Below, piece by piece: positions 2,013 through 52,235 of a stretch of 55,444 nucleotides of DNA. The DNA comes from an uncultured Acidobacteriota bacterium (lineage in GTDB: Bacteria; Acidobacteriota; Terriglobia; Terriglobales; Acidobacteriaceae). The position numbers were made by a program, and so were the translations under genes. Each line of letters starts with the position of its first letter. The first letter of the stretch is position 1. The stretch spans positions 1 to 55,444 of the forward strand of contig CAVQZQ010000085.1 in NCBI GenBank assembly GCA_963718435.1, given 5' to 3'. Under the pieces are notes generated by a model. It had not been told where the DNA came from and ran no database searches. It saw nothing but the letters and a program-made list of their open reading frames with translations.

Positions 2013-2338
2013 GCAGAATTACGACGCACGTTCTGGATACAGTTCTGGGCAAGCCGGCTGGCGGGGTTGCCGTGCGCCTTGAGATGAAGCATGGCGCTGC
2101 TTGGACCGCGATTTCGGCGGGCGAGACCGATGTGGATGGACGCTGCAACAATCTTGCGCTGGATGCGGACGCCGGCGAATATCGACTGACCTTCGCCACG
2201 GGTGCTTACCTGGCGCGGAATGGGCGGACCGGCATTTTTCCAGAGATTGCAATTACGTTTATGTGCGGAGGCGAGGCGCATAATCATCTGCCGCTCTTGT
2301 TGAGCGATAACAGCTACACGACCTATCGAGGAAGCTGA
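2009..2338 (+). CDS. uraH: 5-hydroxyisourate hydrolase (transthyretin-like)
   Basis: SRITTHVLDTVLGKPAGGVAVRLE N-terminus and the C-terminal YTTYRGS signature tetrapeptide of HIU hydrolases. ATG at 2009 overlaps the uraD TGA. Confidence 0.85.
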   Translation: MSRITTHVLDTVLGKPAGGVAVRLEMKHGAAWTAISAGETDVDGRCNNLALDADAGEYRLTFATGAYLARNGRTGIFPEIAITFMCGGEAHNHLPLLLSDNSYTTYRGS

Positions 2339-2340
2339 GA

Positions 2341-3183
2341 ATGGCAAGACTGGGCGAGAATCGCTATGGAAAGTCCCGCGTGCGCCTGTCGCGGATTACG
2401 CGGCACGCGGACCATCACGAATTTAACGAGTGGACCGTGAGGGTGCTGCTGGAAGGGGATTTCGAAGCCAGCTTTACCGCCGCCGACAACAGCAAGATTC
2501 TGCCCACCGACACGATGAAGAACACCGTCTACTTCATTGCGCGCAATTCAAAGGCGGAGACGATTGAGGAGTTCGCAATGGAACTTGGCGATTATTTGCT
2601 CGAGAACAATGCGCAGGTGTCCGGAGTCCTCGTCGAGATTGAAGAGAAAAGCTGGGAGCACATGGTCGTGGATGGAGTGCCGGATGCGACGACATTCAAG
2701 TTAAATGGGCCGGAGGTGAAAACGGTGCGCGCTGTTCGAGATCAGGGTCGCGAGTGGTCTGTCACTTCGGGCGTTGACGGACTGGTCATTCTGAAGACCA
2801 CAAAATCGGCATTTACCGGATACATTAAAGACAGGCTGACTACGCTGAAGCCCGCCACAGATCGCATCTTCGGAACGCGTGCAACTGTGACGTGGGATTA
2901 CGCAGCGGCGGATCCCGGATATGCAAAAGTGCGATCGACTGTGGTGGCAACGCTGCTGAAGGAGTTTGCCGCGCACGACAGCATGAGCGTGCAGCACACG
3001 CTGTTTGATATGGGCAAGGCGGCGCTCGACGCGGCTCCGGAGATTGCGCGTATCACGCTGACGATGCCCAACCTGCACCATCTGCTTGCAGACCTGAGCC
3101 CGTTTGGTCAGGACAATCCGAATCACATTTTTGTGCCGATTGACGAGCCGCATGGGTACATCGAAGCCACGGTCGAACGCTGA
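2341..3183 (+). CDS. uox: Urate oxidase (uricase)
   Basis: 280-aa ORF. It starts MARLGENRYGKSRVRL and ends with the uricase-type MPNLHHL motif. GAGGAAG RBS sits 6 nt upstream. It is the last gene of the urate-to-allantoin operon. Confidence 0.85.
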   Translation: MARLGENRYGKSRVRLSRITRHADHHEFNEWTVRVLLEGDFEASFTAADNSKILPTDTMKNTVYFIARNSKAETIEEFAMELGDYLLENNAQVSGVLVEIEEKSWEHMVVDGVPDATTFKLNGPEVKTVRAVRDQGREWSVTSGVDGLVILKTTKSAFTGYIKDRLTTLKPATDRIFGTRATVTWDYAAADPGYAKVRSTVVATLLKEFAAHDSMSVQHTLFDMGKAALDAAPEIARITLTMPNLHHLLADLSPFGQDNPNHIFVPIDEPHGYIEATVER

Positions 3184-5856: not shown

Positions 5857-6275
5857 GCTAACTGGCAGCCGGCCGAAATCCAAAGTCCCAGCGGCTTGTG
5901 TGGGCACGTATTCGCTGCAGGTTAGGGAAAATTCAGGCGAAATTGAACGATTTCAGCAGCTTTTCTTCTCATTTGCGGACGCCTGAACTTGGTTTGGGCA
6001 CGACCGGGCAGAGGCGCGTTGCCGCGCGCAGCGTGGGCCCGGAGGGCAGTAATTTTTTAGACGATCCTTATACCGGAGCGGCTATTCTATAGTTGCCCTT
6101 TAGCCCAAACTTAAGCCAAATCCCGGCAACGGGCAAAACGCGATCGGACCCTCAATTTTTCCGCTTTTTTTTGAACGTTCAGCACTCCAGATTTCAAACT
6201 CACTCCAAGGCTGTTGGTCCCTCCAAGAGACCTTGGGAATTTTCATTTCAGAGGCCATTCGACTTGAGGTATTCC

Positions 6276-9200
6276 ATGCATATTTTCTCCTCTCTGCATT
6301 CCCGGCTGCCGGCAATCGCGGCAGCCGTTGCGCTGTGTAGCTTTCCAGTGTTGGCACAGCAGACGCTCGGCGGCATCAGCGGCACGGTGACAGACCCGAA
6401 TGGGGGCGTGATTCCGAATGCCGGGGTGACGGCTGTGGGCGAGCAGACGGCGTTGACGCGCACTGCATCGACGAACGGCTCGGGGGGGTATTCGTTTGTG
6501 AATCTTCCCATCGGCACCTACACGCTGACGTACACGGCTGAAGGATTCCAAATCCAAAAGACCCCGCACATCACGGTGCAGGCCGATCGCACGGTCACGC
6601 TGAATGCCGAACTGAAGGTCGCGGCGGCCAAGGGCGACACCGTCGTGGTGGAAGGCTCACCGCTGATGAATGCCGTGGACACGACAGTGGGCTATGTGCT
6701 GGACAAGACGCAGATCGATGCGGTGCCGCTGGCTACAGGCAGCTTCACGGGCCTGGCTACGCAATCGACCGGGGTGAGCGCGGAGTTTGGCGGCGGAACG
6801 GGCGCGAATTCGGGTCTTGGCAATGCTCCGATCTGGGCCAACGGGCAGAGGGACACTTCGAATTCCTTCGTGCTGAACGGAGTGGACGCCAGCAACCTCT
6901 TCAACGGCAAAAGCACAAGCCAGGTGGCTTCGGCCCGCGTAATCAATAGCACGGGCGTGTCTTCGAGCACAGGGGCCGGGGGCGTGATTCCTTCTTCCGC
7001 TTCCATTTATCTCTCGATCGGCAACGCTATTCCCACTCCAGCACCTGAAACGATCGCAGAAGTTCGCGTGAACGCCTCGATGTACGACGCGCAGCAGGGA
7101 TCGACATCGGGCGCGCACATCGATCTGAGCACAGCTTCGGGCACAAACAATCTGCACGGCACGGCGTACGTTCACCGCGGCACGAGCTGGCTCAACGCGG
7201 CGCCGTTCTTCTTCAACCAGGACCCGGACATTCCGGCCTACAACAAGGTTCCGGAGATGCACCGCTACACTGCAGGCGGCGCTGCGGGCGGCCCGCTGAT
7301 CAAGGACAAACTGTTCGGCTTCGTCTCGTACCAGCACTTGCAGGAGTCGGATCAGGAGATCGGCGACTCGGTGCTGGATGTGCCTGTGGGCCTGAGCGAC
7401 GACCGCTCTGCCGATGGCCTGGCGAACGTGTCCAATAACTCGTTTTGCACCGCGTACGACGAGGCCAATTTTGGCTGCACTCCCATTACGGCGGCCAATA
7501 TCGACCGCACTGCGCTGGCCCTGTTCAACTCGCCTGCTCTTCCGGGTGAACCGGGTAAGTGGCTGATTCCCAATGACGCGCTGGCTGCCGCCAACCTGCC
7601 GCCGCCGAGCGCGGCCCATATCGACAACGCATTCATCCCCGGAACAGGACGGTTCAAGGCAGATCTAATCGTGGGCGATCTGGATTACAACGCCAGCAAG
7701 AAAGACACGCTCAGTTTGAAGTACTTTTACCAGCATGATCCGACGCTTTCGCCCTACTCCTACTCAAGTGTGCCCGGATTTACGGAGCACCTGGACTCGG
7801 GCGCGCAGGTGTTCTCGATCATCAACACCTTGATCGTGAAGTCGAACCTGAGCACGACGCAGACACTCGGAGCGATTCGCGAGAAGAACTACGGGGACAA
7901 CGAACAGCCCTTTGGCCCCGATTCGATTCCCGGCGGGACGGCAGGCAATGGGGCCATCAACATGTTCGGATCGAAATATTTCCCCGGCATTTCCGTGTAC
8001 AACGTGCTGGGTGACTATCAGCCCTCCGGATTCCCAACGGCCATCCTGAATATCGGACCCAACGCGGAAGGGCAATCTTCCAATACAGGGATGTTCCAGA
8101 ATCGCCTGGCTCCTTCGGCCAACGCGATCTGGATCATCGGGAAACACACCTTGAGCTTCGGCGCCAGCTATACCTACACGCAGCTCAATACGATCGACAA
8201 GCGCACCGGTACTGGCACCATTGCGACGGACGACTTGAGCCAGATGGTGCAGGGCTTCGTGACGCCCGGCAGCTCTGCTACCGGCTTCTATGTCAGCTCT
8301 TTCCTGCAGGGCAACGCGAACCGATACTACCGCGCCAATCAGCTTGGGACGTATCTGCAGGACAAATGGCAGGTGAAGCCGAATCTCTCGCTCACGGCGG
8401 GCGTGCGCTATGACTGGGACGGAGGCCTGACGGAGAAGTATGGGCGCATCTTCAACTTCGACGCGAGCCGGTACAACTACAATTCAGCCTCGGACGTGAT
8501 TGAAAATACCGGACTGATCATTGCCGGCAACAACGCGAATGGCACTTCCGGCGTGAGCCCGACGACCCTGACCGGCCGTCAATGGGGCATCGCCCCGCGC
8601 GTGGGCGCGGCGTGGCAGCCGGGCATGTTCCACAACAAGGTAGTGGTGCGCGCGGGCGCCGGGATGTACTACGACCGCGGAGAGCTTTTCAGCTACTTCT
8701 CGCCCGGGTATGCCATCGGCACGGTCACCGGCGGCCCTTTCGGCGTAAACCAGCAGCTTCCTTTCGTGAATGTTTCAAGCTGCCCGACTGCGTCGCAGTC
8801 GCTGTATGAGTACTACATTCCGACCTGCGGCGGGAACGGCGGTTTTGGCCCTCCGACGGGGCCGCCGACCGATGCGGAAGGCGATCTCTCAAACCCCTAT
8901 GGGACTGCTCTCCAATACGCGGCGCCCAACAGTCCGAAGGCATCTGACTTGAGCAACTACCTGCCCAACGCTTACAGCATCACGAACTTTGGCGATGGGG
9001 CGCCGGGCGTGATCAACAACGGCCAGCCGATTTCGCTGGGCGTCTACGACCGCAAGAACAAGCTGCCGTACACCTTCAACTACACGCTCGACTTTCAATG
9101 GCAGCCGCGCAACGATGTGGCGATTGAAGTGGGCTATGTAGGGAACGTGGGCCGCCACCAGGTGATTCCGGTGCCATTCAACCAGCCGACGATCGCCTCT

Positions 9201-10293
9201 CCTTCGAGCCCAGCGCTCGCGGGCAGTGCCTATCAGCAGAACTACAGCTATGGGTACAACGTCGGTGGAGAGGCTCTGCCCGACGGAAACTTCTACCAGG
9301 CGAATTATGAGGGCGGCAACGTCGATCTGCGCGTTCCTTACATCGGTTATGCGGCTGAATCCATCACTTACGTGGCCGCCGGTATCGACGCATACAACGC
9401 GCTGCAGGCACACGTTGACAAGCGCATGAGCCACGGCCTCCAGGTCGGGTTGTCCTATACCTAGTCGCATGCACTGGACGAGCAGAGCGGCCTGGGCCTG
9501 TTCTACAGCGGCAACAATCCTCTGAACCTGCGCAGCGGGTATGGCTCATCGGATTATCGACCGCACGCATGTCATCAACTTCAACTACGTCTTACCAGAT
9601 TCCGGGGATTGCCCGGCGAGCACTCCCTCGCCGGCAAGGTCGTCGACGGATGGTCGCTGATCGGCGACACCGTGCTGCAGAGCGGCCAGCCCTACAGCAT
9701 CATCGACTTCTCCGGCGCTGTCGGCAGCATTTATTACTCACGGCCGACGGCATCACCAACCCCATCGTGCCACTGGCGAAGGGCTGCACCGCCAAGAACG
9801 CCTTGACGGGCGCTTCCGGCGCATGGACACCCTCCGGCGGCCTACCGGCCCTGAAGACCTCCTGCTTCACTCTCCCGCTGCTGCCGCCAGGCGGCCTGAA
9901 CGGCGCCATCCCTACTTCCGATCCTTACGAAACCGGGTTCACGAACGGCCAGCGCAACATCTTCCGCCAGGCTTTCCAGAAGCGTGCAGATGCGTCGCTG
10001 GTGAAGGTTCTGCCGCTCCGCGAGAGGTACAACTGAAGTACACCTTCGACTTGTACAACCTGACGAACACCACGAGCCTCGATATTCCGGGAGCCGAGGT
10101 GTCACAAAACGCCGGCTACAACCCGTTCCCCGCAGGTACTTGGGACCAGCCCGTCGGCTCCCACACAGGCTCTTCCGACGTCCTGCGATTCCTCCAGCAC
10201 GGGGTTCTATGCCTGTCCTTCCGGGTTAGGTATTGTGACCCACACCATTGGCAGTCCGCGACAGATACAAATGTCGTTGCGGCTCGATTTTTG
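6276..10293 (+). CDS. TonB-dependent receptor with N-terminal carboxypeptidase regulatory-like domain; the 3' roughly 830 nt carries an in-frame TAG (9462-9464) and at least 4 frameshifts
   Basis: ATG at 6276 with a GAGGT RBS and a signal peptide (MHIFSSLHSRLPAIAAAVALCSFPVLAQQ). A CarboxypepD_reg-like beta-sandwich follows (ISGTVTDPNGGVIPNAGVTAV, GGYSFVNLPIGTYTL). An intact 1062-codon ORF runs to 9464. Receptor sequence continues in shifted frames (GKVVDGWSLIGDTVLQSGQPYSIIDFSG, QLKYTFDLYNLTNT) to the canonical C-terminus SPRQIQMSLRLDF* at 10293. Confidence 0.75.
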
Positions 10294-10789: not shown

Positions 10790-13839
<3,050 letters not shown>

Positions 13840-23008: not shown

Positions 23009-23083
23009 GGCGCTATCGTCTAGGGGTTAGGACGTGAGATTCTCAATCTTAAAACCCGGGTTCGATTCCCGGTAGCGCTACCA
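23009..23083 (+). tRNA. tRNA-Glu (anticodon CUC) with encoded CCA
   Basis: Manual cloverleaf: acceptor GGCGCTA/TAGCGCT (G1-U72 wobble), D-arm GTCT-AGGGGTTA-GGAC, anticodon arm TGAGA-TTCTCAA-TCTTA (anticodon CTC), T-arm CCGGG-TTCGATT-CCCGG, discriminator A, CCA at 23081-23083. Confidence 0.85.
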
Positions 23084-23255: not shown

Positions 23256-23513
23256 ATGATCGACTACTACGAGTTCCTGCAAATCAGCCCCCACGCTGAT
23301 TCGGAGACTGTGCACCGCGTGTATCGATTTCTAGCGGCGCGTCTTCACCCTGACAACCCAGAATCCGGCGATGCTGAAGCGTTCCGAGTCTTGAAGTCAG
23401 CCATTGACGTGTTGTCGAACCCGACTCGACGCGCCGAATACGATGCGGCCCGCCGTCGGGAAACCGGTGAGGCGCCTCTCTCTCGACGTCCATCGATTTC
23501 ATGGACACCCTAG
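23256..23513 (+). CDS. J-domain (DnaJ-like) protein
   Basis: DYYEFLQISPHADSETVHRVYRFLAARLHPDN...FRVLKSAIDVLSNPTRRAEYDA is a complete J domain, though with HPDN in place of HPD. The next ORF opens inside it with no RBS, so the two may be one frameshifted gene. Confidence 0.65.
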   Translation: MIDYYEFLQISPHADSETVHRVYRFLAARLHPDNPESGDAEAFRVLKSAIDVLSNPTRRAEYDAARRRETGEAPLSRRPSISWTP

Positions 23514-24318: not shown

Positions 24319-25137
24319 TCAGGCCTGCTTCTCCTTGGCCGGAGCAGCCAGCGCCACGGCGGCTTCGCTGGTGAGAAGCAGGAAGGTGAAGGTCTCCTGC
24401 AGATACAACCGGACAGCGGCATCGGTATGGCTGAGATAACCGATGGAGACGTCCTGGCCGATGTGAAGGTCGAAATCGCCGCCACGCGTGGTCAGTACGA
24501 AGGCGCCGGAAATGGCGGGCGCCCAAATGATTTGATCCTTCACCAGCCGCTTGACGTGCTCCAGCACCGGGTATCCATGGTCGCTGGTCTCGGCAAGTGC
24601 GGTGTAGGCGTCGGCGCCCAGGAGCACCGAGTAGGGGCCGTTGACACCGACCAGACGCAACTGGCTCAAACTATGTGCAATGGCATCGGGATACTCGCGC
24701 ACGTCGGCGGGGAGCGTCATGATCGGGTTACTTGTCCCTTCACGGACGCCCCCAATTCCGGCGGCGGCATAGCCCTCGAAGATGGCGGCGTCCTCGGCAA
24801 AGGCGATCTGTCGCGCGGCATCCTTCGCCGGTTGCCAGTCCGCGTCGTTCGCACCACGCTCGACGTCGTCGATCGTCTGGCGATCGAGGTCGAACGGGAC
24901 CCGAAGTTCGACCAGCGCCTTTACCTCGCGCTGCCTGGCGACGATACCTTTGGCCGGCGCGGCGATCGTCCGAAGGTGGCCGGTGCCGACGGCAGAAAGG
25001 CCGGTTCCTGCCGGTCCCTTCACGTCGACGACGCGCCGGCCGGCAAGGTAGCGCTTGAGGGTGCGCGATGTTTCCTCTTCGATCTGAGCCCATGCCAAAT
25101 CGGAAATGGGGGCAAGCTCGCGATGGAGATTATTCAT
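24319..25137 (-). CDS. Family 1 encapsulin nanocompartment shell protein (linocin M18-like, HK97 fold)
   Basis: MNNLHRELAPISDLAWAQIEEETSRTLKRYLAGRRVVDV...GPYSVLLGADAYTALAETSDHGYPVLEHVKRLV...FDLHIGQDVSIGYLSHTDAAVRLYLQETFTFLLLT is near-canonical encapsulin sequence. A GGAG RBS lies 7 nt upstream. It is 272 aa and intact. Confidence 0.9.
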   Translation of the reverse strand: MNNLHRELAPISDLAWAQIEEETSRTLKRYLAGRRVVDVKGPAGTGLSAVGTGHLRTIAAPAKGIVARQREVKALVELRVPFDLDRQTIDDVERGANDADWQPAKDAARQIAFAEDAAIFEGYAAAGIGGVREGTSNPIMTLPADVREYPDAIAHSLSQLRLVGVNGPYSVLLGADAYTALAETSDHGYPVLEHVKRLVKDQIIWAPAISGAFVLTTRGGDFDLHIGQDVSIGYLSHTDAAVRLYLQETFTFLLLTSEAAVALAAPAKEKQA

Positions 25138-26236
25138 GTCGTATGTCTCCTTTAAGGGAGCCGATGCCCAGCGAACCGTTGCGCACCGACGGGATGGATG
25201 GAGAGGGTGCGGCCGGGGCAGCCGGCGCAGGGCCGGGCTAGTTTGGTCGTCGGTTACGTTCTCCAGAAATGTAGCCGACGGTACAAAGAACAGGTTCCCA
25301 GTGACAGCGCGGCTGAAATCGAGCAGTCGGTCGTAGTTGCCGGGCGGGCGGCCGATGAACATGTTGTCGAGCATCTGCTCGATGGTGTGGGGCGAACGGC
25401 TGTATCCGATGAAGTAGGTACCAAATTCATTCTGTCCGGGCCGGCCGAATGGCATGTTATCGCGCAGGATCTTGATCTCTTTTCCGTTCTCAACGATCGT
25501 CGTGAGCGCGTTGTGCGCTGAGGTTGGCTTGACGGAATCGTCCAATTCGATATCGGACAGCTTGCTGCGGCCGATGATACGTTCCTGCGCCTCAGTGGAG
25601 AGCGCATTCCACGCGTCAAGGTCGTGGAGATATTTCTGCACAATGACGTAGCTACCGGCGACGAAGGCAGCATCCTCCTCACCGATGAGCACGGCGTCGG
25701 TAACGGCTGACCCATGGGGTTCTCCGTCCCGTCGACGAAGCCCAGGAGATCACGATCGTCGAAGTACCGGAAGCCTTGCACTTCGTCAACCGGCGACACG
25801 GCATCTTGATCCGCGCCATAAACTGGGTGGCCAGCTCGAAGCACAGATCCATACGCTTGGCGCGGATGTGGAAAAGCAGGTCGCCTGGCGTGGACACCGC
25901 GTGGCGGGCTCCGGCACGAATCTCTCGAAACGGATGCAGTTCTGCCGGCCGCGGAGGCCCGAAGAGGCGGTCCCATGCGTCGGATCCAAACCCGACGACG
26001 CAGGAAAGTCCTGCTTCCAGGTCGCGAAAATTCACCGCACGCACCAGCGCGGCGAGGTCACCGCAGAACGAGCGGAGCGTGGCGCGATGCTCCGAGCCCG
26101 CATTGAGCGTCGCGACCAGGAAGATCACGGCGCGGCTAAGCGGCGCGGATACTGGCTGCGCGATTGCAGGGAATCTACCTGTCGTTTCGGCCGCGCTCAT
26201 CGGATCGGAATCCATCGGTGTGGTTCCTGAATACAC
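25130..26236 (-). CDS. Dye-decolorizing (DyP-type) peroxidase encapsulin cargo with C-terminal targeting peptide; at least 3 frameshifts
   Basis: N-terminal DyP motifs LSCVVGFGSDAWDRLFGPPRPAELHPFREI and VSTPGDLLFHIRAKRMDLCFELA are in ORF 25679..26236. The middle motif VDEVQGFRYFDDRDLLGFVDGTENPMGQ is in ORF 25254..25976. The C-terminal domain EEDAAFVAGSYVIVQKYLHDL...NMFIGRPPGNYDRLLDFSRAVTGNLFFVPS is in the frame of 24319..25692. A Pro/Ala linker and the cargo-loading peptide GSLGIGSLKGDIRHE* are in a third frame, ending at a TAA that overlaps the encapsulin start. Confidence 0.8.
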
Positions 26237-27664: not shown

Positions 27665-27992
27665 TTGGCACGGCTCTCGTTTGGTGGAGTGACGGGGAGG
27701 TCCCCGGATGCGAGCTGCCCGTGCCCTTTCGCGAAGAAGGCTTCGTCCTGCATCCGACTCAGATGATGCGACACGGTCAGAACAAGTTTCACATGGTTCG
27801 CGTTCTTCCACACCAAAGATCGCTCGCGGCAGCTGCGCCAGGACGGCAACCCGTTAAGCCGCTTGGGAGTTCAAATGCTGCATTGAGTGGCTCTGCAAGG
27901 GATTGACATGGAAGAAGCCGTAAAGCGGATCGCGGTGTAAGGTAAGTTTGCCGAATCCACTTCGAAAGCAAACTAAGAGAGGAGATCGCAGC

Positions 27993-29720
27993 ATGGCGAC
28001 TCGAACAGTGTCCGACTTGCTGGTGCAAACTCTAGTGGCGGCGGGCGTCGAAAGGGTCTATGGGGTCTCCGGCGATTCGCTCAACGGAATCACCGACTCG
28101 ATTCGAAGAGAGAAGAAAGTTGAATGGGTCCACATGCGCCACGAAGAAGCAGCTGCGTTTGCGGCCGGCGCGGAGGCACATCTCACTGGAAGATTGGCAG
28201 TGTGCGCGGGGAGCTGCGGTCCGGGGAATCTGCATTTGATCAACGGTCTCTATGATTGCCATCGCAGCCGTGTTCCGGTGCTCGCGATCGCCGCGCAGAT
28301 TCCCAGTAGCGAAATCGGAAGCGGCTATTTTCAGGAAACAGATCCGGAACATCTCTTCGCACAATGCAGTCATTACTGCCAACAGATCTCACTTCCCGAA
28401 CAGATGCCCCGAATTCTGGAGATCGCGATACAGACCGCGATCTCGCGGGGTGGTGTCTCGGTGGTTGCGATCCCCGGAGATGTGGCCTTACGTGAGGCCT
28501 CGGAAGAGGGCCCACGGCTACATTTTCCTCCGCCGAATCCAACTGTATGTCCCTCAGACAATGAAATCGAGACGTTGGCAAACCTTCTCAATGAGTCCAG
28601 AAACATAACGATCCTGGCCGGTGCCGGCTGCGCGGGAGCTCACTCTGAATTAGTCGAACTCGCGGCGAAACTGAATGCCCCGGTCGTACACGCGATGCGC
28701 GGAAAGGAATTCATTGAGTACGACAACCCATACGACGTGGGGATGACGGGCCTTCTGGGGTTTTCGTCAGGATATCGTGCAATGATGACCTGCGACCTGC
28801 TGCTCATGATCGGAACAGACTTTCCTTATCAGCAGTTCTTTCCGAAGGATGCGACGATCGTGCAGATCGACATTCGTGGCGAGCAACTGGGCCGGCGTAC
28901 CAAAGTCGACTTGGCTTGGTAGGGGATACAAAGGCGACTCTCTGGGCGCTGCTGCCAAAACTCAAGAAAAGCGGAGACGACCAGCATCTGAAGGATTCGC
29001 TCGAGCATTACCGGAAGGCCAGAAAGGGGCTCGATGAGCTTGCGACAGGAGCAATCCGGGAACCAACCAATCCATCCGCAATATGTTGTTCGAGTGCTCG
29101 ATGAACTGGCAGCCGATGATGCAGCTTTTTCCTGCGATGTGGGCACGCCAACGATTTGGGCAGCCCGCTACTTGACCATGAATGGCAAACGCCGCCTGCT
29201 TGGCTCTTTCAATCATGGCTCGATGGCAAATGCATTGCCTCAAGCGATCGGGATTCAGGTGAGTCATCCGGGGCGCCAGGTCGTGGCCTTGTCGGGAGAT
29301 GGCGGTCTCGCAATGCTGCTGGGAGACCTGCTCTCGCTGCGCCAATTACACGCGCCCGTCAAGATCATCGTCTTCAAGAATGAATCATTGGCGTTTGTTG
29401 AACTGGAAATGAAGGCGGCAGGAATTATTGATTTCGGAACCGACCTTCAAAACCCGAATTTCGCGAAGCTGGCCGAGGCGGCGGGTCTGCTTGGCCTGAC
29501 GGCTGAATCGCCGAACCAAGTGCGACCGATGATTGCGCAAGCGCTGGCGCACGACGGACCCGCCCTGGTTGAGATTCCGGTAAGCCGCCAGGAGCTTTCG
29601 ATGCCTCCGACGATCACCTTCGAACAGGCAAAAGGCTTTGGGCTTTTCGCTCTCAGGGCAGTTCTCAGCGGGCATGGAGATGAGATCGTCGACCTCGCAA
29701 AGATCAATCTCTTTCGGTAG
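27993..29720 (+). CDS. poxB: Pyruvate oxidase / pyruvate dehydrogenase (quinone), TPP- and FAD-dependent; 2 frameshifts within 28915-29100
   Basis: [36 protein letters not shown]...[33 protein letters not shown] are TPP-enzyme N-terminal motifs, in the ORF running to 28922. Then [17 protein letters not shown] lies in a second frame. IHPQYVV...[17 protein letters not shown]...[16 protein letters not shown]...[32 protein letters not shown] lies in a third (ORF 29034..29720). Confidence 0.8.
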
Positions 29721-35197: not shown

Positions 35198-36562
35198 TTG
35201 ATGCAGTCTCTCCGGCTCCTTCGAGCTCCAGATCACATCGCATCAACGATCGAGGTTGTAAAGGCGGACCCCGTTTTCGCTTCGGTTCCCGAGGCCCTGC
35301 TGACGCCGCAACCGACTGGCTCCATTCACGCAATTCACACCGCGCAAGCAACCGTGGCACGCAATCCAAAGGACGCAGTGGCATACGCGGGATTGGGCGC
35401 AGCATACCTTCAACGCGCCAGGGAGACAGGCGACATAAGCGACTATCAACTCGCTGAAGAGTCGCTGAACAAGTCACTCGACTTCGGCTCCGCAGATTTT
35501 TCGGCCGACGATGCGCTCGCAACGCTGGCAGAAGTTTGCATGGGAGAGCATCGTTTTACGGACGCGCTCCACTTTGCTCAGAAGGCTCTCTCTCTCGGAA
35601 CCGGGGACGTATCGCCCTTTGCAATCGTTGGCGATGCGTATGCAGACATGGGTGAATACGACAAGGCGGCCAATGCATACGGTCGATTGACACCTCGCGA
35701 TATGACGCTTTCTCCGCGCGCGGCCTATGCGCGAGACAGCCGACTCTCTTATCTCAAGTTCATCGCCGGCGATACTACAGCGGCGATCTCTCTTATGAAA
35801 ACCGCGGTTACAGAGGGTGTTGAAGCTCAACTTCAGAGCGAAAATCTCGCATGGTTGTACTACGAACTGGGCGAGTACGAAGTGCAGGCGGGCGACGCAG
35901 CTTCCGCCAATGTGGCATATCTTCAGGCCCTCAACGTACATCCCGGTGATTATCGCGCTCTCGCAGCCTTGGGCAAGGTTCGGGCAAACAATGGCAGATA
36001 TGCTGAAGCAATCGTCCTCTATAAAAGCGCAATTGCGGTTGTGCCGATGCCCATTTACATCGCGGAGCTTGGCGATCTCTATGAGAAGGTGGGCAACCGG
36101 ACAGAGGCTCAGAAACAATATGCGCTTGTCGAATACATCGGGCTCCTGGGCAAGATCAACCAGGTGCTTCACAATCGCGATCTCGCACTTTTCTATGCCG
36201 ACCATGACGTGAAGCTTGCTGAGTCTCTCGATCTCGCTCAGAAAGAGCTGGAGCTCAGGCACGATATCTACACATGGGACGCGCTGGCGTGGGCTCTCTA
36301 CAAGAACGGAAAGCTGACGGAGGCCGCAAAAGCAAGCAAAAACGCCTTGAAGTTCGGAACGCGCGACCCCCTGCTCCTGTTTCACGCCGGAATGATTGCC
36401 GAAGGACTTGGAAATCGTGAGCAGGCTCAAAGGGAGATGGAGGAAGCGCTTCAGATCAACCCGCATTTCCATTTCATCTATGCGAATACGGCACAGCAGA
36501 GACTCGCCGCGCTGGGAGCGCAAGCAGAGTCGACCGGAGGATCGAATGACCACGCTCGTTAA
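35198..36562 (+). CDS. TPR-repeat protein (paralog 2)
   Basis: 454-aa intact ORF. It shares the HDIYTWDALAWALYKNGKLTEA block and overall TPR architecture with the upstream gene. It has no obvious signal peptide, so the true start may lie upstream in another frame. Confidence 0.6.
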   Translation: MMQSLRLLRAPDHIASTIEVVKADPVFASVPEALLTPQPTGSIHAIHTAQATVARNPKDAVAYAGLGAAYLQRARETGDISDYQLAEESLNKSLDFGSADFSADDALATLAEVCMGEHRFTDALHFAQKALSLGTGDVSPFAIVGDAYADMGEYDKAANAYGRLTPRDMTLSPRAAYARDSRLSYLKFIAGDTTAAISLMKTAVTEGVEAQLQSENLAWLYYELGEYEVQAGDAASANVAYLQALNVHPGDYRALAALGKVRANNGRYAEAIVLYKSAIAVVPMPIYIAELGDLYEKVGNRTEAQKQYALVEYIGLLGKINQVLHNRDLALFYADHDVKLAESLDLAQKELELRHDIYTWDALAWALYKNGKLTEAAKASKNALKFGTRDPLLLFHAGMIAEGLGNREQAQREMEEALQINPHFHFIYANTAQQRLAALGAQAESTGGSNDHAR

Positions 36563-38981
36563 GAGGCCAGGCAGATTCTTGACGCTGGTGCTGTTGCTCG
36601 GCTTCTGTCGTTTGGCTGGGGCTCACCCGATGGGAAATTTCAGCGTGAACCATTACTCCAAGATTTCTTTGGAGACGGATGGGGTTCGCGTCACCTACTT
36701 CATCGATCTGGCGGAGATACCCACCTATCAGGAATTGCAGCAAGCCAATATCTCTGCATCCGCAATCGCTCCCGATTCCGCAGCCGTCATCAACTACGTT
36801 GCGGCCCGAGGTTCGGAGCTGGCACGCGGTCTCATTCTCCAGGTGGATGGCAAACCGACTCCTCTTCGGCTCATCTCCAGTGGGGTCATTTTTCCTCCGG
36901 GCGCAGGTGGTCTTCCCACGATGAAGATGGGCTTTGTGTATGAGGCAGCCTATTCATCGACTCCCTCGACGATGGACCGCCAACATATCAGCCTTCATTA
37001 TGCCGACAATAATTATCCCGGCCACGCGGGATGGAAGGAGATCGTGGCTCTGCCCGGAGATGGCTCCCTGCTTCGGAGCACTATCCGCACGTTGGATCGT
37101 AGCAACGAGTTGAGCAACTATCCAACCGATCTGCTGAGCAGCCCTCCCCAGGATCTCGAAGCATCGCTGGTCGCGACGCTGCCGCCCTTGCCGGCGGTCG
37201 CTCACGACGCACAGAGTGCCCCTCTGTCGTCATTAGCAGCGCGTCAAGCAATGAGAGCGGCGCCCGCGTTGAATCGAGTCGGCGAGAAGAAGGGACCCAC
37301 GCGCAAGCCGTCCACGTCCCGAACTGATTCGGTCGCCCAGGAAACTTCGAAGCCCGCACGGCCTCTGTCGGCTACCGTGCATCTCCAGGCGAACCGGCAA
37401 CAGACACCCCGCAGCAGATTTACTGAGTTGATTCAAGCCCAGGATCTCAGTGCATGGTTCTTGTTTACCGCGGCCCTCATTGCCATCGGTCTTGGCGGGC
37501 TTCACGCCCTGGAGCCTGGCCACGGCAAGACCATCGTCGCCGCATATCTTGTCGGCTCCAAAGGGACAGCGCATCACGCAATACTTCTTGGAATCATCGT
37601 CACCGCATCGCACACGGCCGGCGTCTTCGCACTGGGTGCCGTTACACTTTACGCTTCACGCTACATCGTGCCCGAGCAACTCTATCCCTGGCTTGGCGGG
37701 CTCTCCGGCATCACGATTGCGGTGCTTGGCGGCTATATGGTTCTGCGCCGCCTGACCGGCGCGGGTACAGATCACTCTCATACTCCGGGCAGTTCCCACG
37801 GTCACTGGAAATTCTGGAATCGCCCAGCGGAGGATGAGACAGATCGCAATCCTGCCGCGAGCATGACGCCTTCAAAACAGTCCGTGAGCCTGACCCAGCT
37901 TTTTGTTTTGGGTATTACCGGCGGAATCATCCCATGCCCGGCTGCGCTGATCGTGCTCCTGAGCGCATTCGCGCTGCACAGAATCGGTTTGGGCTTCTTC
38001 CTGATCGTGGCATTTAGCGTTGGCCTCGCCGCAGTTCTGATTGGCTTTGGAATGTTGATGGTGTACGCGCGCCGCTTTATGAGCCGTCTTCGGATCGACG
38101 GCGCGTTGACCAGGCGTTGGCTTCCGGTTGTGTCCTCCTCATTCATTACAATCCTCGGCCTGACCCTGGCGATTCAATCCCTGGCTTCGGTGCATCTCGA
38201 CGCGCACTTGTTTTCAAAAGAGCGGCTGGGGCCGATTCTGTTCGTTACTTGCCTGGGCCTGATCCTCGGGATGCGGCACTCTACCGACGCCGACCATGTG
38301 GTTGCAATTTCAACCATTGTGAGCAAGCAACGAAGCATCCGCAATGCCGCTGTCATCGGATCCGTCTGGGGGTTGGGTCATACGATAACAATCTTCATCG
38401 TCGGCTCGCTGATCATCCTTTTCGGAGTGGAGATTCCACCCCGGCTGGGTTTGTCGATGGAGTTCAGTGTGGCTCTCATGCTCGTACTCCTTGGCATCCT
38501 TAACCTCACCGGCGTGATGCAAAAGGTGACAACCCGGATGACTCCAGTAGTTACGATCGCGAAGGACGCACCAGACCTGAAACCGAAGAAAACAGCCATG
38601 ACCAAAACGGGGAAACTTCGGGAGAACTCGGTAGGTCGCCTTGGCATCTATCAATGCGCGAGGCCCCTGGCCATCGGTCTTGTTCATGGTCTCGCCGGAT
38701 CAGCGGCGGTCGCGCTACTCGTCCTGTCTACAATTCATAGCCCTGTCTGGGCAACGGTTTATCTTCTAATCTTCGGTGCCGGAACCATGATCGGGATGAT
38801 GTGCATGACCGCAGTTATTGCACTTCCGCTTACATTTGCTGGAGATCGCTTTTTGAAATTGAGCAAGTATTTCGGAGCTGCATCGGGGATGGCCAGTCTT
38901 TGTTTTGGCTCGTTCCTTGTCTACCAACTAGGATTTATGGGAGGGCTGTTTACCAGCCACCCTCAATGGATTCCCAGATAG
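36555..38981 (+). CDS. Fusion membrane protein: signal peptide + about 290-aa periplasmic domain + RcnA-like NicO Ni/Co transporter domain + HoxN/NixA-like NicO domain
   Basis: GGAGGA RBS then ATG 36555 (MTTLVKRPGRFLTLVLLLGFCRLAGA|HPMGNFS). The first transporter domain has HALEPGHGKT, a His-rich loop DHSHTPGSSHGHW and GGIIPCPAAL. The second has GMRHSTDADHVVAIS and WGLGHTITIF. One uninterrupted 808-codon frame. Confidence 0.7.
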   Translation, partial: LVKRPGRFLTLVLLLGFCRLAGAHPMGNFSVNHYSKISLETDGVRVTYFIDLAEIPTYQELQQANISASAIAPDSAAVINYVAARGSELARGLILQVDGKPTPLRLISSGVIFPPGAGGLPTMKMGFVYEAAYSSTPSTMDRQHISLHYADNNYPGHAGWKEIVALPGDGSLLRSTIRTLDRSNELSNYPTDLLSSPPQDLEASLVATLPPLPAVAHDAQSAPLSSLAARQAMRAAPALNRVGEKKGPTRKPSTSRTDSVAQETSKPARPLSATVHLQANRQQTPRSRFTELIQAQDLSAWFLFTAALIAIGLGGLHALEPGHGKTIVAAYLVGSKGTAHHAILLGIIVTASHTAGVFALGAVTLYASRYIVPEQLYPWLGGLSGITIAVLGGYMVLRRLTGAGTDHSHTPGSSHGHWKFWNRPAEDETDRNPAASMTPSKQSVSLTQLFVLGITGGIIPCPAALIVLLSAFALHRIGLGFFLIVAFSVGLAAVLIGFGMLMVYARRFMSRLRIDGALTRRWLPVVSSSFITILGLTLAIQSLASVHLDAHLFSKERLGPILFVTCLGLILGMRHSTDADHVVAISTIVSKQRSIRNAAVIGSVWGLGHTITIFIVGSLIILFGVEIPPRLGLSMEFSVALMLVLLGILNLTGVMQKVTTRMTPVVTIAKDAPDLKPKKTAMTKTGKLRENSVGRLGIYQCARPLAIGLVHGLAGSAAVALLVLSTIHSPVWATVYLLIFGAGTMIGMMCMTAVIALPLTFAGDRFLKLSKYFGAASGMASLCFGSFLVYQLGFMGGLFTSHPQWIPR

Positions 38982-39108
38982 TGATTATTCGAATGGTTAC
39001 AGAATCGCCCAGAGTGCGAAAGGTTCTCATTCTTTGTCCAGGAGTACTCCGAACTACGGATGGGATTGTTATAGGTGTAACGCAGAGGTAACACGAAGAG
39101 GATAATCA

Positions 39109-41481
39109 GTGCTGGGGGTCTCTCGATTCGCGATGAACGGACTTAGGGAGTGCGAAGCCGGTGCGTGCTGCGATTGTTTTGGCAGCCTGAGCAGACTTCT
39201 CAAAACTCTCCTGTGCGGCTGGACGCAGGTCCTAATCCTGCTCTTTTTTCTTTCGCAGGTTTCAGCCTACGCGAACTCCATTGAGGTGAGGGGTACCGTT
39301 TCTGATCCCGCTTCGAGGCCTGTCGCAGGCGCTACCGTTGAGCTTGTTGGCGGGAATGATGAGTCATTGGCCCGTACAATCACCGGTTATACGGGCTGTT
39401 TCCAACTTTCAGCGAAATCGACGGAGGAGTATCGCCTGATTGTGAAAGCGGCTGGATTTCAAACAGTTTCAAAAATGCTGGTGATCTCCCCATCCGAAGC
39501 GCGATACGAAATCAATTTCAGCCTGACCATCAGCACGGTCGAATTGGTGACAGTTACATCGGACGTGGGTAATGTTGACGTATTTTCTCCGGACCCAGCC
39601 GAGAAGGTCTTTGTTCAGCAGGACCTGATCGATGCAAACCCGGGTCGTGCGGGAGCGCCCGTCTCGATTCCCGGCTTTCCCATTGAAACTGCGTCAGGCG
39701 GCATTAAGGCTCCGCAATATTTTGCTCCGGGCGTTGCGGCGGATCATGGTGAGCCAATCGCGCAGTTCATTTCGGTCGGCGGCTTTCTGCTTCCCAATAA
39801 CCTCTCTGCGAACGCGCACGGGAATGGATATGCCGATCCTAATATCCTCATCCCGCAAGTTCTTGGAGATGTCCAGGTGGACGGAGGATCCTTCAATGTG
39901 CTCGAAGGGAATCATGCGGTGAACCTCGCTGCCTCCTATCGATTGCGATCCAGAGTCGCGCCATTTGTAAATTTGTCGGGGGACTATCGCGATATCGGTC
40001 TCGCGATGGGAATGAGCCCAGGGGAAAAGTCATGGGTGGCTCTCGAGGCCTCCTACGGCAATGGCTTCCTCAAGCGCCTCGAGCATCGGCAACAGTACAA
40101 GATCAACGGCCAGCGCGTGTTTGAGACACACCAGCACCAATTAACTCTTCTCGGAATCGGGTACTATGGATTCTCTTACATTCCGGGGCTAGTCCCCATC
40201 GGCAGGGCGAACCCTGACTATCCGAATGTCGGCGACACCGTCGATCCTCGCCAGAAGGAGCAGACACATACTTCGCTGATCGCGCTTAACGATGAGTGGA
40301 CGCTGAACCGGCAACAGAATCTCCAAATCTCTGGATTCTTCCGTACTTACAATCTGTCGCTCAATTCGGATTTCGGGGAGGGAATGATTCGGCAAAGCGA
40401 GTTTCGCACGGTGGCGGGAACCAGCGCCAACTACACAGACGAAGTCAGCAGCAGCCTCTCAGTCTTAGCCGGGCTCGATTTTGAGCGGGAAGCCCCGCGC
40501 CGCGACGACCTCGATCACTACAACTTCTACACACCTGGGAATATGGATTCGGGCCCATTCTCTAAAGTGGACGGAAGCAATGTGACGATCACCCCGATTA
40601 GTCCCTATGCCGCGTTTGAGGGCGCACTGGGAAGCCGCATTCGCTACTACGCCGGCTGGCGGCGCGATCAGATCGAGATCGACAACCAGGACCTTTTGCT
40701 GCCCAAGGATTCGTTTCATGGGTGGGTTGGCGTGAACTCTCCGAAAACAACCGTCTCAATTATTCCCGGCTCTGCGCGGTGGGCGCCTTTGGTGTCGGCC
40801 AGCGCGGGCGAGTCATTCTTCACTGAAGACCCAAGGGTTGGAGCAGGAACGACGCACGAGACGCTTGTGAGCCGAGCTCACTCGTATCAAATGGTGGCGA
40901 GCAAGCTGATTTCCCACACAGATATTAGGTTGACGCTCGGGCAACTGACCGGAGCCGCGCAATTGGCCAAGATTGATCCGGACACGGGATTGCAAGAAAA
41001 CCAGGGGCCGGGCCGCATGCGATTTCTGACTACCGCAGTCAAGCAGAATTTCGGCGCCGGCTCATTGCTTCTGACTTGGTCGAAGGCGGATGCCCGCGAT
41101 ATCGACACCGGACAAATGACACCAGAGGCCCCCCGAACGATCTTCGATCTTCTTGGCGCGTCGCAGAAGTTGCCTCTGCGCCTTCAGGCGAAAGGGGAAT
41201 TCGAGTACGTCGCGGCAAAGCCGCTGGGCACCGGATGTGCACCTGATCCAAATGCGCAATGCATCGGCGTGCGAGTGAGGGAATTGCGCGCGGCCGTCTC
41301 GCGTTCATTTCAAGAAGGACGCTTTAACATCGGAACGAATCTGTTCTTAGCGAGCGGCTTCACCGGCCAGACTCTGGAAACCTTCTATCCTTCCACGACA
41401 TCCCAAGTGGCGGGCGTCCGCATTCCGTCTTACGCAAGCATCAATTTCACCTACAGGTTCGGTGCTTCCTCTGCGCCATAA
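39109..41481 (+). CDS. TonB-dependent outer-membrane receptor with N-terminal CarboxypepD_reg-like domain
   Basis: GTG start with a GAAGAGGA RBS and signal peptide LLCGWTQVLILLFFLSQVSAYA. A beta-sandwich (IEVRGTVSDPASRPVAGATVELVGGND...YRLIVKAAGFQ) is followed by a plug-like region. The C-terminus ends INFTYRF. 790 aa, intact. Confidence 0.7.
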   Translation: MLGVSRFAMNGLRECEAGACCDCFGSLSRLLKTLLCGWTQVLILLFFLSQVSAYANSIEVRGTVSDPASRPVAGATVELVGGNDESLARTITGYTGCFQLSAKSTEEYRLIVKAAGFQTVSKMLVISPSEARYEINFSLTISTVELVTVTSDVGNVDVFSPDPAEKVFVQQDLIDANPGRAGAPVSIPGFPIETASGGIKAPQYFAPGVAADHGEPIAQFISVGGFLLPNNLSANAHGNGYADPNILIPQVLGDVQVDGGSFNVLEGNHAVNLAASYRLRSRVAPFVNLSGDYRDIGLAMGMSPGEKSWVALEASYGNGFLKRLEHRQQYKINGQRVFETHQHQLTLLGIGYYGFSYIPGLVPIGRANPDYPNVGDTVDPRQKEQTHTSLIALNDEWTLNRQQNLQISGFFRTYNLSLNSDFGEGMIRQSEFRTVAGTSANYTDEVSSSLSVLAGLDFEREAPRRDDLDHYNFYTPGNMDSGPFSKVDGSNVTITPISPYAAFEGALGSRIRYYAGWRRDQIEIDNQDLLLPKDSFHGWVGVNSPKTTVSIIPGSARWAPLVSASAGESFFTEDPRVGAGTTHETLVSRAHSYQMVASKLISHTDIRLTLGQLTGAAQLAKIDPDTGLQENQGPGRMRFLTTAVKQNFGAGSLLLTWSKADARDIDTGQMTPEAPRTIFDLLGASQKLPLRLQAKGEFEYVAAKPLGTGCAPDPNAQCIGVRVRELRAAVSRSFQEGRFNIGTNLFLASGFTGQTLETFYPSTTSQVAGVRIPSYASINFTYRFGASSAP

Positions 41482-49134: not shown

Positions 49135-51810
49135 TCAGCAGGTGCCGTTGTGGATGTCTGGCCCCGTCTGTTGCTCCTGGAGTGCCGCTTGCGCAGCGGC
49201 GAGCCTTGCGGTCAACAACCGGAAGGGTGAGCAGGATACATAGTTGAGCCCGATCTTGTGGCAGAACTTGACGGAATCCGGATCGCCGCCATGTTCGCCG
49301 CAGATGCCGACCTTAAGGTTGGGCCGGGTGTTGCGTCCTTTAGCCGTGGCCATCTTTACCAGAGCGCCCACGCCAGGGATGTCAAGAGTGGCGAAGGGAT
49401 CCTGTTTGAAGATGCCGGCCTTGAGGTACGCGGGCAGGAAGTTGTTGATGTCATCGCGCGAGATGCCGAAGGTGGTCTGAGTGAGATCGTTGGTCCCGAA
49501 GCTGAAGAACTCGGCTTCTTCGGCAATCTGGTCAGCCGTGAGAGCAGCACGCGGCAGTTCGATCATAGTGCCGACCATGTAGTCGACTTTGGCGTTCCTT
49601 CTCCTTGAAGACTTCATCGGCCACGCGACGAACGATTGTCGCCTGGTGACGCATCTCCTCGATCGAGCCGATGAGCGGAATCATGATCTCGACGTGCGGA
49701 TCGCCGCCCTTTTTCTTAACCGCAACCGCAGCCTCGATGATGGCTTGCGCCTGCATCTCGGTAATCTCGGGGAAGGTGATGCCGAGACGGCATCCGCGCA
49801 ACCCGAGCATGGGGTTCATCTCGTGGAGTTCTTCAACGCGCGCCAGCAGCGTGCGCAGCTCCTTGAGCTTGGGTGAGCGCGGCTTGGTTTCTTCGAGGCG
49901 CGCGATCTGAACCAGCAGATCTTCGCGCTTGGGCAGAAACTCGTGCAGCGGCGGATCGAGCAGGCGAATGGTGACCGGCAGCGATTCCATTGATTTGAAG
50001 AGGCCCACAAAGTCGGCACGCTGCATGGGAAGAAGTTTCTTCAACGCAGCGCGGCGATCTTTTTCGTTGTCGGCCAGGATCATGGCGCGCATGTGCTCGA
50101 TGCGATCTTCGGCAAAGAACATGTGCTCGGTGCGGCATAGGCCGATGCCTTCGGCGCCGAAGAGGCGCGCCTGTTTGGCATCGCGCGGGATATCGGCGTT
50201 GGCACGGATGCGCAGCTTGCGCAGCGGATCGACCCAGGCCATGAACTTGACCAGATCGGGATCGTCCGGTTGCGCATCGAGGGTCTTGAGCTTGCCGTCA
50301 ATGACGCGGCCGGTTGTGCCATCGAGCGAGAGCCAGTCTCCATGCTTGAAGGTGTGACCCTTTACGCGGAGTTCCCTTTTGGCTTCATCGACGACGCAGT
50401 CACCGGCGCCGGCAACGCAGCACTTACCCATGCCGCGGGTGACAACTGCGGCGTGTGAGGTCATGCCACCGCGCGAAGTGAGAATGCCCGAGGCAACTTC
50501 CATTCCGGCGATATCTTCCGGAGTGGTTTCGCCGCGGACAAGGATGACGGACTTAAAGGAACCGTTGGTGTGGTGTTTGACCGCGTCTTCAGCGGTGAAG
50601 ACGATCTGTCCCACGGCCGCGCCCGGTGAGGCGGGCAAGCCAGTGGCGAGGACTTCGATCTTCTCGCCCTTTTCAACGAGGCGCGGAACCAGGAAGTCAT
50701 ACAACTGGTTGGGCTCGACGCGGAAGATGGCTTCCTCTTGCGTGATGAGTCCTTCGCGGACCATGTCGATAGCCACGCGTACGGCGGCGAGGCCGGTGCG
50801 TTTGCCATTGCGGGTCTGCAGCATGTAGAGCTTGCCATCCTGGATGGTGAACTCGAAATCCTGCATATCGCGATAATGCTTTTCCATCTTGCGGGTGATG
50901 TCGCGCAGCTGCTCGTAGACCTTGGGCATGGCGCGTTCGAGCTCGCTGATGGACAGCGGGGTGCGGACGCCGGACACGACATCCTCGCCCTGTGCATTCA
51001 TCAGGTACTCGCCGAAGAAGATATGCTCGCCGGTGGCGGGATTGCGGGTGAAGCCAACGCCTGTGCCGGAGTTTTCGCCGAGGTTGCCGAAGACCATGGC
51101 CTGTACGTTGACGGCAGTGCCCAGCCAGTCGTCGATGCGGTTGATGCGGCGATAGGTCTTGGCGCGCTCGTTCTGCCAGCTTCTGAAGACGGCATCGCGC
51201 GCCGCCACGAGTTGCATCCAGCGGATCCTGCGGGAATTCCTTGCCGGTTTCCTTCTTCACCAGCTTCTTGTATTCGGTGATGATCTCATGAGCGCGTCAG
51301 GCGTCAGCTCGTAATCGAACTTGACTTTCTGGCTGCCTTGACCGAGTCGAAAACGTGCTCAAACTTCTTCTTCGGGATGTCGAGCACGACGTCGCCGAAC
51401 ATCTGGATCAGGCGGCGATAGGAGTCATACGCGAAACGGGGATTGTTGCTGCGCTTGGCGAGCGCTTCAACGGCCTTGTCATTCAGGCCAAGGTTGAGAA
51501 TGGTGTCCATCATGCCGGGCATGGAAAACTTGGCGCCCGAGCGGACCGAAACCAGCAGCGGATTCTCGCCCATGCCAAGCTTCTGGCCCTGCATCTTTTC
51601 AAGCTGCTCAGCGCGGCAGCATCTCGTCGTCGATCTGCGGATTGAGCTTGCCGCGCATGTACTCGCGGCATGCCTCGGTCTGGATGGTGAATCCTGGGGG
51701 GACCGGCAGGCCGGCGTTGGTCATTTCAGCCAGGCCGGCACCTTTGCCGCCCAGCACGTCTTTCATGCGGCCATTGCCATCTGCAGTTCCGCCGCCGAAG
51801 AAATAAACAT
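49135..51810 (-). CDS. ppdK: Pyruvate, phosphate dikinase, full-length footprint but interrupted by at least 5 frameshifts
   Basis: The N-terminus [48 protein letters not shown] is in ORF 51608..51967. [27 protein letters not shown] is in ORF 51304..51594. The central part [16 protein letters not shown]...[15 protein letters not shown]...[24 protein letters not shown] is in ORF 49532..51217. The C-terminus [37 protein letters not shown]...[18 protein letters not shown] is in ORF 49135..49617. Confidence 0.85.
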
Positions 51811-52235
51811 ATTGATTGGGCGTTGAGGTTGAGTCTCGCCTGTCCGGCGAGAGGGCGGATCCACCACGCCCTGCGTCATGGGATATAGCCTCCGTATGTA
51901 GGATTTTCGCCCAGGCGGCGAGGAACTGCCGCCGAGGGACTTCGAACCCCGCGACTGCGGCTGCCATGACAAGTGTGGCGAACGGATTAGCTCAGCAATG
52001 GGAAAGACGGTAAAAGACTAAGCGCGTGCAGTCATCCAGACATTTGGCGGCGCCTCGCGGCGTTCAATCCGTCGCATTTACAAATAGCGCCGCAAGTATA
52101 CACTTGCCTGTGTTCCTCGTCACAGACCATTCGCCGGTCCAGCGCGTCACGCCCTATTGATTGGGTGGGAATTTTCGAAAAATGCTGCGCGAACTCCGCG
52201 CCAAATCAGCGGGTAGAAGCGGCCGCGAAGAAAAA

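Follow-up and report, generated by a model that had tools for sequence, protein, structure and literature searches.

Does this locus encode a natural fusion of a peroxidase to an encapsulin shell, or two separate genes whose reading frames have been damaged in the assembly? The sequence is a 55,444-nt contig from an uncultured Acidobacteriota bacterium of Terriglobales-like affiliation (contig CAVQZQ010000085.1, assembly GCA_963718435.1; the whole stretch is referred to as the window), and on its minus strand a DyP-type peroxidase gene lies directly upstream of a family-1 encapsulin shell gene. As written, the second half of the peroxidase is read straight into the shell protein. The original prediction had described a canonical DyP/family-1 encapsulin cargo-shell pair, had called the frame anomaly probably artefactual in view of errors elsewhere, and had raised a real in-cis cargo-shell fusion as the alternative. 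The pair and the artefact were borne out by the analysis; the fusion was not. With a probability of about 0.9, the locus was read as an ordinary family-1 encapsulin operon with DyP cargo, its frame breaks and its fusion being assembly indel errors. The missing bases would then be present in the organism and absent from the assembly, which was probably produced from long reads only.

The shell gene and the overlap with its cargo gene

Both genes are encoded on the minus strand, and all coordinates given are those of the window. Two features define the downstream end of the operon.

24319-25137, minus strand: family-1 encapsulin shell gene, 272 aa plus TGA stop, intact, matching the equivalog model NF041155
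25130-25137, minus strand: ATGAATAA, in which the DyP stop overlaps the shell start; kept in 79 of 80 related loci

The shell ORF (open reading frame) runs from the ATG at 25137 to the TGA at 24319-24321, and its product begins MNNLHRELAP. The protein matched the NCBIfam model NF041155 ('family 1 encapsulin shell') over the whole profile (positions 1-261 of 261), with E=6e-105 and 350.3 bits against a cut-off of 100. Residues 1-265 aligned with solved T=1 shells (9i8d, E=2e-111; Cfp29, 7phm, E=3e-109), a similarity to HK97-fold family-1 shells at the level of sequence, and PF04454 (Linocin_M18) was precomputed on the public protein P0121, which is identical to the locus ORF. Directly upstream, and overlapping the shell ATG, lies a cargo gene with the C-terminal targeting peptide GSLGIGSLKGDIRHE followed by a stop. 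By the equivalog model, the similarity to solved shells and the adjacent targeting-peptide cargo gene, the shell protein is classed as a family 1 encapsulin. Self-assembly and cargo packaging would be expected from the solved homologues.

The DyP gene in three frames

The DyP gene occupies 25130-26215 of the minus strand, and its likely start is the ATG at 26215 and not the GTG at 26236. The gene is not one continuous ORF in the sequence as given, which contains three net -1 frame changes. The pieces were as follows.

25808-26215, minus strand: DyP segment 1, the N-terminal ~136 aa in the first frame, TIGR01413 positions 4-126, aligned as DNA and as protein to the DyP of relatives
25710-25807, minus strand: DyP segment 2, ~33 aa in the second frame with the GXXDG motif (GFVDG, within GFVDGTENP), TIGR01413 positions 122-158
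25231-25709, minus strand: DyP segment 3, the C-terminal catalytic half (...SAHNAL...ILRDNMPFG...GNLFFVPSATFLENVTDDQTS) in the shell gene's frame, TIGR01413 positions 168-322
25223-25236, minus strand: interval with the third inferred missing base (CCCGGCCCTGCG), net one base short in the variable linker
25130-25237, minus strand: probable true DyP C-terminus, a Pro/Ala/Ser linker, the targeting peptide and TAA; DNA read in the frame of segment 1 gives PGPAPAAPAAPSPSIPSVRNGSLGIGSLKGDIRHE and a stop
25138-25236, minus strand: probably spurious read-through of 33 codons (PALRRLPRPHPLHPSRRCATVRWASAPLKETYD), the linker and targeting-peptide DNA in the shell frame
24322-25692, minus strand: 457-aa ORF with Dyp_perox_C and Linocin_M18, the public gene call for the contig (P0121), read as an artefactual fusion

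Profile searches, which the original prediction had proposed as a check, gave the full-length shell match described above and placed TIGR01413 across all three DyP frames; the C-terminal DyP fragment scored 149.5 bits (cut-off 100.5). The catalytic motifs GFVDG, (S/Y)AHN and ILRDNMPFG were conserved and aligned with a solved encapsulin-associated DyP. We take their roles to be those established for DyPs, namely GXXDG with the distal Asp, the proximal His and the distal Arg. By these sequence features, the peroxidase gene is placed in the encapsulin-associated subgroup of DyP-type enzymes.

Three-frame translation found no stop between segment 3 and the shell ATG. The C-domain thus does read on into the shell as had been predicted, over 33 codons (25236-25138) and not the 31 first counted. 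The frame that carries the linker and the targeting peptide (25237-25130) is bounded by a TAG at 25240-25238 and a TAA at 25132-25130, and the Pro/Ala linker, the targeting peptide and the TAA overlapping the ATG of the 272-aa shell were all found as predicted. The last 15 DyP residues were the same in L033, L010, L016 and others of the related loci. That a single-base change would restore this frame was also correct, one inserted N being sufficient; the string concerned, CAAACTAGCCCGGCC, is at 25231-25245 and not near 25190.

The at least two further frameshifts that had been predicted in the N-terminal half of the gene were located by alignment with ten intact relatives, which showed one-base gaps at 25808/25807 and 25710/25709. 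All ten (10/10) were continuous at all three break sites. The three frame changes are of the same sign, with one base missing at each. When one N was inserted per site, a stop-free DyP of 362 aa was obtained. This restored protein was 86% identical, with a single gap, to the DyP of L033, the closest relative, and its residues 17-361 matched 8u4z (the Klebsiella pneumoniae encapsulin-associated DyP) with E=1e-136, through the GSL(N/G)IGSLK targeting peptide. With the shell frame one base behind that of DyP and open upstream of its ATG, the last of the deletions carries the DyP C-domain on into the shell.

In the organism, an intact operon would be expected to produce a DyP haem peroxidase that ends in a targeting peptide, preceded by a flexible Pro/Ala/Ser linker. 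Translation of the shell gene would be coupled to that of the DyP gene through the eight-base overlap, and the shell would assemble around the DyP oligomer, binding the targeting peptide on its lumenal face. The three one-base losses in the DyP gene would be consensus indels of an error-prone assembly.

Selection and sequence context at the break sites

Three lesions in 1.09 kb of DyP next to an intact shell gene could also be produced by real recent pseudogenisation, in which the frameshifts are true and the shell is cargo-less or re-used for cargo encoded elsewhere. Ratios of dN/dS were calculated by the Nei-Gojobori method against six relatives and were 0.13-0.16 for the restored DyP and 0.08-0.15 for the intact shell. 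There was no sign in dN/dS of relaxed selection on the restored DyP. Its restored frame contained neither stops nor an excess of non-synonymous change, and its targeting peptide was perfectly conserved, all of which speaks against inactivation. The contrast between a broken DyP and an unbroken shell is itself unremarkable: at about 2.7 errors per kb, a 0.8-kb shell gene was calculated to have a chance of about 11% of being free of error. On these grounds, and on those given below for other genes of the contig, pseudogenisation was considered improbable.

The contexts of the three breaks were GGATC-AAG, GGGT-CAG and CCCGGCCC, with no consistent motif or long homopolymer. A shared homopolymer or methylation motif was considered as a possible common cause but found no support in these contexts. 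By inspection, none of the three break sites contained an A/T run or a slippery heptamer of the form X XXY YYZ. This bears on a second alternative, a real in-cis fusion or programmed recoding, whereby frameshifting or slippage in the linker would let the cell make a DyP-shell fusion alongside a DyP with its targeting peptide. A programmed -1 frameshift at the linker was rejected, there being no slippery motif and no conservation of the shift in relatives. The two upstream breaks would moreover abolish translation of the N-terminal half, and the 457-aa ORF is without half of the DyP fold.

Comparison with related loci

Species-representative genomes were scanned with the shell protein, which gave 576 confirmed relatives; the best 80 were used for comparison. 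Almost all of these were metagenome-assembled genomes (MAGs) of Acidobacteriota (Terriglobales, Sulfotelmatobacter and Acidoferrales), with shell identities of 83-93%, and the closest match to the operon DNA was L033, at 86%. Synteny with the 80 loci was confined to the operon and a few short stretches. The comparison with Acidobacteria operons had been proposed in the original prediction. In at least 70 of the 80 loci the upstream gene was one continuous ORF of about 360-440 codons (stop to stop), ending GSLGIGSLKGD..HE and a stop codon. The relatives thus have separate, overlapping genes, in one continuous frame at the positions where the present sequence is broken, and no homologous fusion was found among them.

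The shell frame was open for at least 30 codons 5' of the ATG in 62 of the 80 relatives (median 43). An open upstream frame in most relatives would be compatible with a fusion; it also means that the net loss of one base from the linker or targeting-peptide DNA is enough to give a fusion ORF.

Of the 47 'MFD...bin' MAGs, 6 had a DyP spread over several frames, against none of 33 other assemblies (Fisher p=0.04). Two further MFD bins, L002 and L023, had the break in the linker. The MFD bins were taken as Nanopore-only from the names of their records and from the project paper, where assembly was with Flye and one round of Medaka, a polishing step meant to cut indel errors.

In L034 (8407-9706), an interruption of about 1.3 kb separated DyP residues 273 and 272; it may be an insertion element or a misassembly. 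Loss of cargo may on this example occur within the clade, a point in favour of pseudogenisation.

Fusion-like proteins in public data

The 457-aa virtual fusion was searched against 5.8 billion proteins, and fusions were counted among the 120 best matches. The top match, P0121, was the gene call of the same contig, with Dyp_perox_C and Linocin_M18; it was 100% identical to the 457-aa ORF, a singleton, and its sources were NCBI and ENA. About 30 further proteins of 375-661 aa carried both DyP and Linocin_M18 domains (with P0121, the set comprises P0121-P0149, P0154, P0171 and P0205), and their existence is a point for a real fusion. Nearly all were single sequences from single contigs; clusters of the unfused 272-aa shell reach 1032 members. 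Only two fusion-like clusters had several members, and these consisted of unfused 269-aa shells and odd-length fragments.

The position of the frame change differed among the fusion proteins, and most junctions were out-of-frame targeting-peptide DNA, as in ...HPSHRCATVRSASVPSKETYD followed directly by MNNLHREL. The peptide's own coding frame was conserved, for which a true fusion would have no use. Among the 120 best matches no conserved DyP-shell fusion family was found, the junctions and lengths being different and no cluster having a consistent fused length.

Three of the fusions were traced at the DNA level, and in each the targeting peptide was still encoded, out of frame in L081 and in frame in L082 and L083. 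In L081 (ENA assembly, contig_97912), DQPAVAE...GSLGIGSLKGDIRHE and a stop were read in another frame. In L082 (GCA_963730745.1) a run of four C preceded the ATG; five would give the canonical ...DPRYE and stop, which suggests a change from C5 to C4. In L083 (GCA_037975565.1) ATGATAA was found where others have ATGAATAA. Both L082 and L083 therefore differ by one base from the canonical layout, at or just before the overlap, and in both the neighbouring genes were split too (aldehyde dehydrogenase; sigma-54 activator). P0140, the protein of L083, had frameshift scars within its shell part.

At the present locus the fused ORF covers only positions 168-322 of the DyP profile, and its 'linker' is out-of-frame targeting-peptide DNA. 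A natural cargo-shell fusion was rejected as a candidate on three counts: it is not conserved in relatives, its cargo domain is incomplete, and its linker is the targeting peptide read in the wrong frame. In-cis fusion or recoding was accordingly regarded as scarcely credible.

Frameshifts elsewhere on the contig

Frameshifts in other genes were located by split Pfam domains together with frameshift-aware protein-to-DNA alignment; a codon-usage frame plot trained on long ORFs was too noisy for counting. The essential gene secA (10900-13839, minus strand) had its SecA_DEAD, SecA_PP_bind, P-loop_SecA and SecA_SW domains distributed over at least five frame segments by Pfam, and tblastn agreed. 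Frameshift-aware alignment against close SecA homologues gave about nine single-base shifts in the first 680 codons, both insertions and deletions, near 13052, 12970, 12518, 12385, 12191, 12067, 12018, 11885 and 11788. The gene for pyruvate phosphate dikinase (PPDK; 49138-51991, minus strand) was in four frame segments with at least three shifts, the pieces being PPDK_N 2-49, PPDK_N 95-145, PPDK_N 134-218 through PEP-utilizers_C 7-169, and PEP-utilizers_C 169-291.

Two enzyme genes on the plus strand were also affected. In that of a thiamine pyrophosphate (TPP)-dependent enzyme (27924-29717), the N and M domains and then the C domain were found as same-frame pieces, with either a stop codon or two paired shifts between them at about 28920-28990. 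The gene for an FAD-binding subunit of xanthine-dehydrogenase type (384-1503) was split between frames. These breaks are likely to be of the same error class.

Shift density in the broken conserved housekeeping genes (secA, DyP and PPDK) was 1-4 per kb, and the DyP gene, with its three breaks in 1.09 kb, fits this contig-wide pattern. Since a free-living bacterium cannot have all of these genes inactivated, the contig must carry many consensus indel errors. The same consideration weighs most heavily against pseudogenisation of DyP, because the essential secA and the housekeeping PPDK are damaged at least as densely and cannot all be pseudogenes. The suspicion in the original prediction of errors elsewhere was thus well placed, with frameshifts in secA, in PPDK and in one or more further enzyme genes.

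Points that weigh against the assembly-error reading

Several observations count against attributing the breaks to the assembly. The assembled consensus by itself leaves some room for a true genomic absence of the three bases. None of the three DyP breaks lies in a clear long homopolymer, and pairwise dN/dS is blind to very recent inactivation. The errors are also strongly clustered: uniform random error does not explain why the long ORFs at 6093-9461, 36396-38978 and 39106-41478 (2.4-3.4 kb) are unbroken when secA has about 4 shifts per kb. Candidate causes of the clustering are coverage dips, strain mixture and cross-recruitment of reads; it may be speculated that reads from co-occurring related populations were recruited to conserved genes during consensus polishing.

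If the linker frameshift were real, the product would be a shell with partial DyP on its lumenal N-terminus, or the locus would encode an encapsulin left without cargo once DyP had recently been lost. Both outcomes were considered highly improbable, and an intact operon damaged by assembly indels was retained as the explanation.

Comparison with known systems

Examples of family 1 shells with DyP cargo are those of Mycobacterium (Cfp29/DypB), Brevibacterium linens, Klebsiella pneumoniae (PDB 8u4z/8u50) and Rhodococcus jostii (DypB). The present locus resembles such systems in having two genes in one operon, cargo first and shell second, and in the full-length match of its shell to the equivalog and to solved T=1 shells. 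The restored DyP likewise matches encapsulin-associated DyPs from end to end, with ...GSL(G/N)IGSLK... after a Pro/Ala/Ser linker. Unlike known DyP systems, the DyP frame here is broken three times, which is attributed to assembly error. A further difference is the host. The 2021 survey found DyP encapsulin systems mainly in Actinobacteria and Proteobacteria (PMC8346489), whereas this one is from an uncultured Acidobacteriota bacterium, with hundreds of Acidobacteriota relatives now present in public MAGs.

Natural N-terminal fusions to family-1 shells do exist, and this lends the fusion some initial plausibility. Those described in the family-wide survey are only the Flp fusions of archaea and the dihaem cytochrome c fusions of anammox bacteria, with no DyP fusion class among them (PMC8346489). 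The ORF as written is like these fusion encapsulins in placing a cargo domain N-terminal to the shell. The Flp and cytochrome fusions are conserved within clades and need no targeting peptide; the ORF of this locus, in contrast, has half a DyP and an out-of-frame peptide junction and is not conserved.

As in the indel artefacts of long-read-only metagenomes, single-base insertions and deletions are scattered here across conserved genes of the contig. The DyP breaks at other positions in related Nanopore-only MAGs, and their absence from other assemblies, are a second point of likeness. The locus departs from typical long-read artefacts in that its DyP sites are not obvious long homopolymers.

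Other features of the window

A urate-degradation cluster on the plus strand adjoins the xanthine-dehydrogenase-type subunits and comprises OHCU decarboxylase (1359-2009), HIUase/transthyretin (1952-2335) and uricase (2311-3180). When the whole window was scanned with Rfam, the one hit was a tRNA gene (63 bits) at 23009-23080 on the plus strand; after it comes a small J-domain-like ORF (23256-23513). The non-coding sequence 3' of the shell gene contains weak direct repeats (23966-23988/24137-24159, two copies, 78% identical) and an imperfect 25-nt inverted repeat (24079-24103/24215-24239, 72% complementary). Chance matching or a degenerate repeat element probably accounts for these repeats.

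Implications

DyP-loaded family-1 encapsulins are the commonest encapsulin type. The DyP-encapsulin system of this locus is one already described, and the fusion is no genuine part of it; there is little biological novelty, hundreds of near-identical operons in Acidobacteriota MAGs being already public. Were the linker frameshift real, it would represent a natural cargo-shell fusion, or a loss of cargo, through a one-base deletion in an overlapping gene pair. The more practical lesson concerns data quality: wherever an overlap of the ATGAATAA type is combined with a shell frame that is open upstream, the net loss of one base close to the cargo gene's 3' end gives a false fusion ORF. Surveys of domain architecture could take such DyP and Linocin_M18 artefacts for a new fusion class of encapsulins, and candidates may be filtered by junctions that consist of out-of-frame targeting-peptide DNA.

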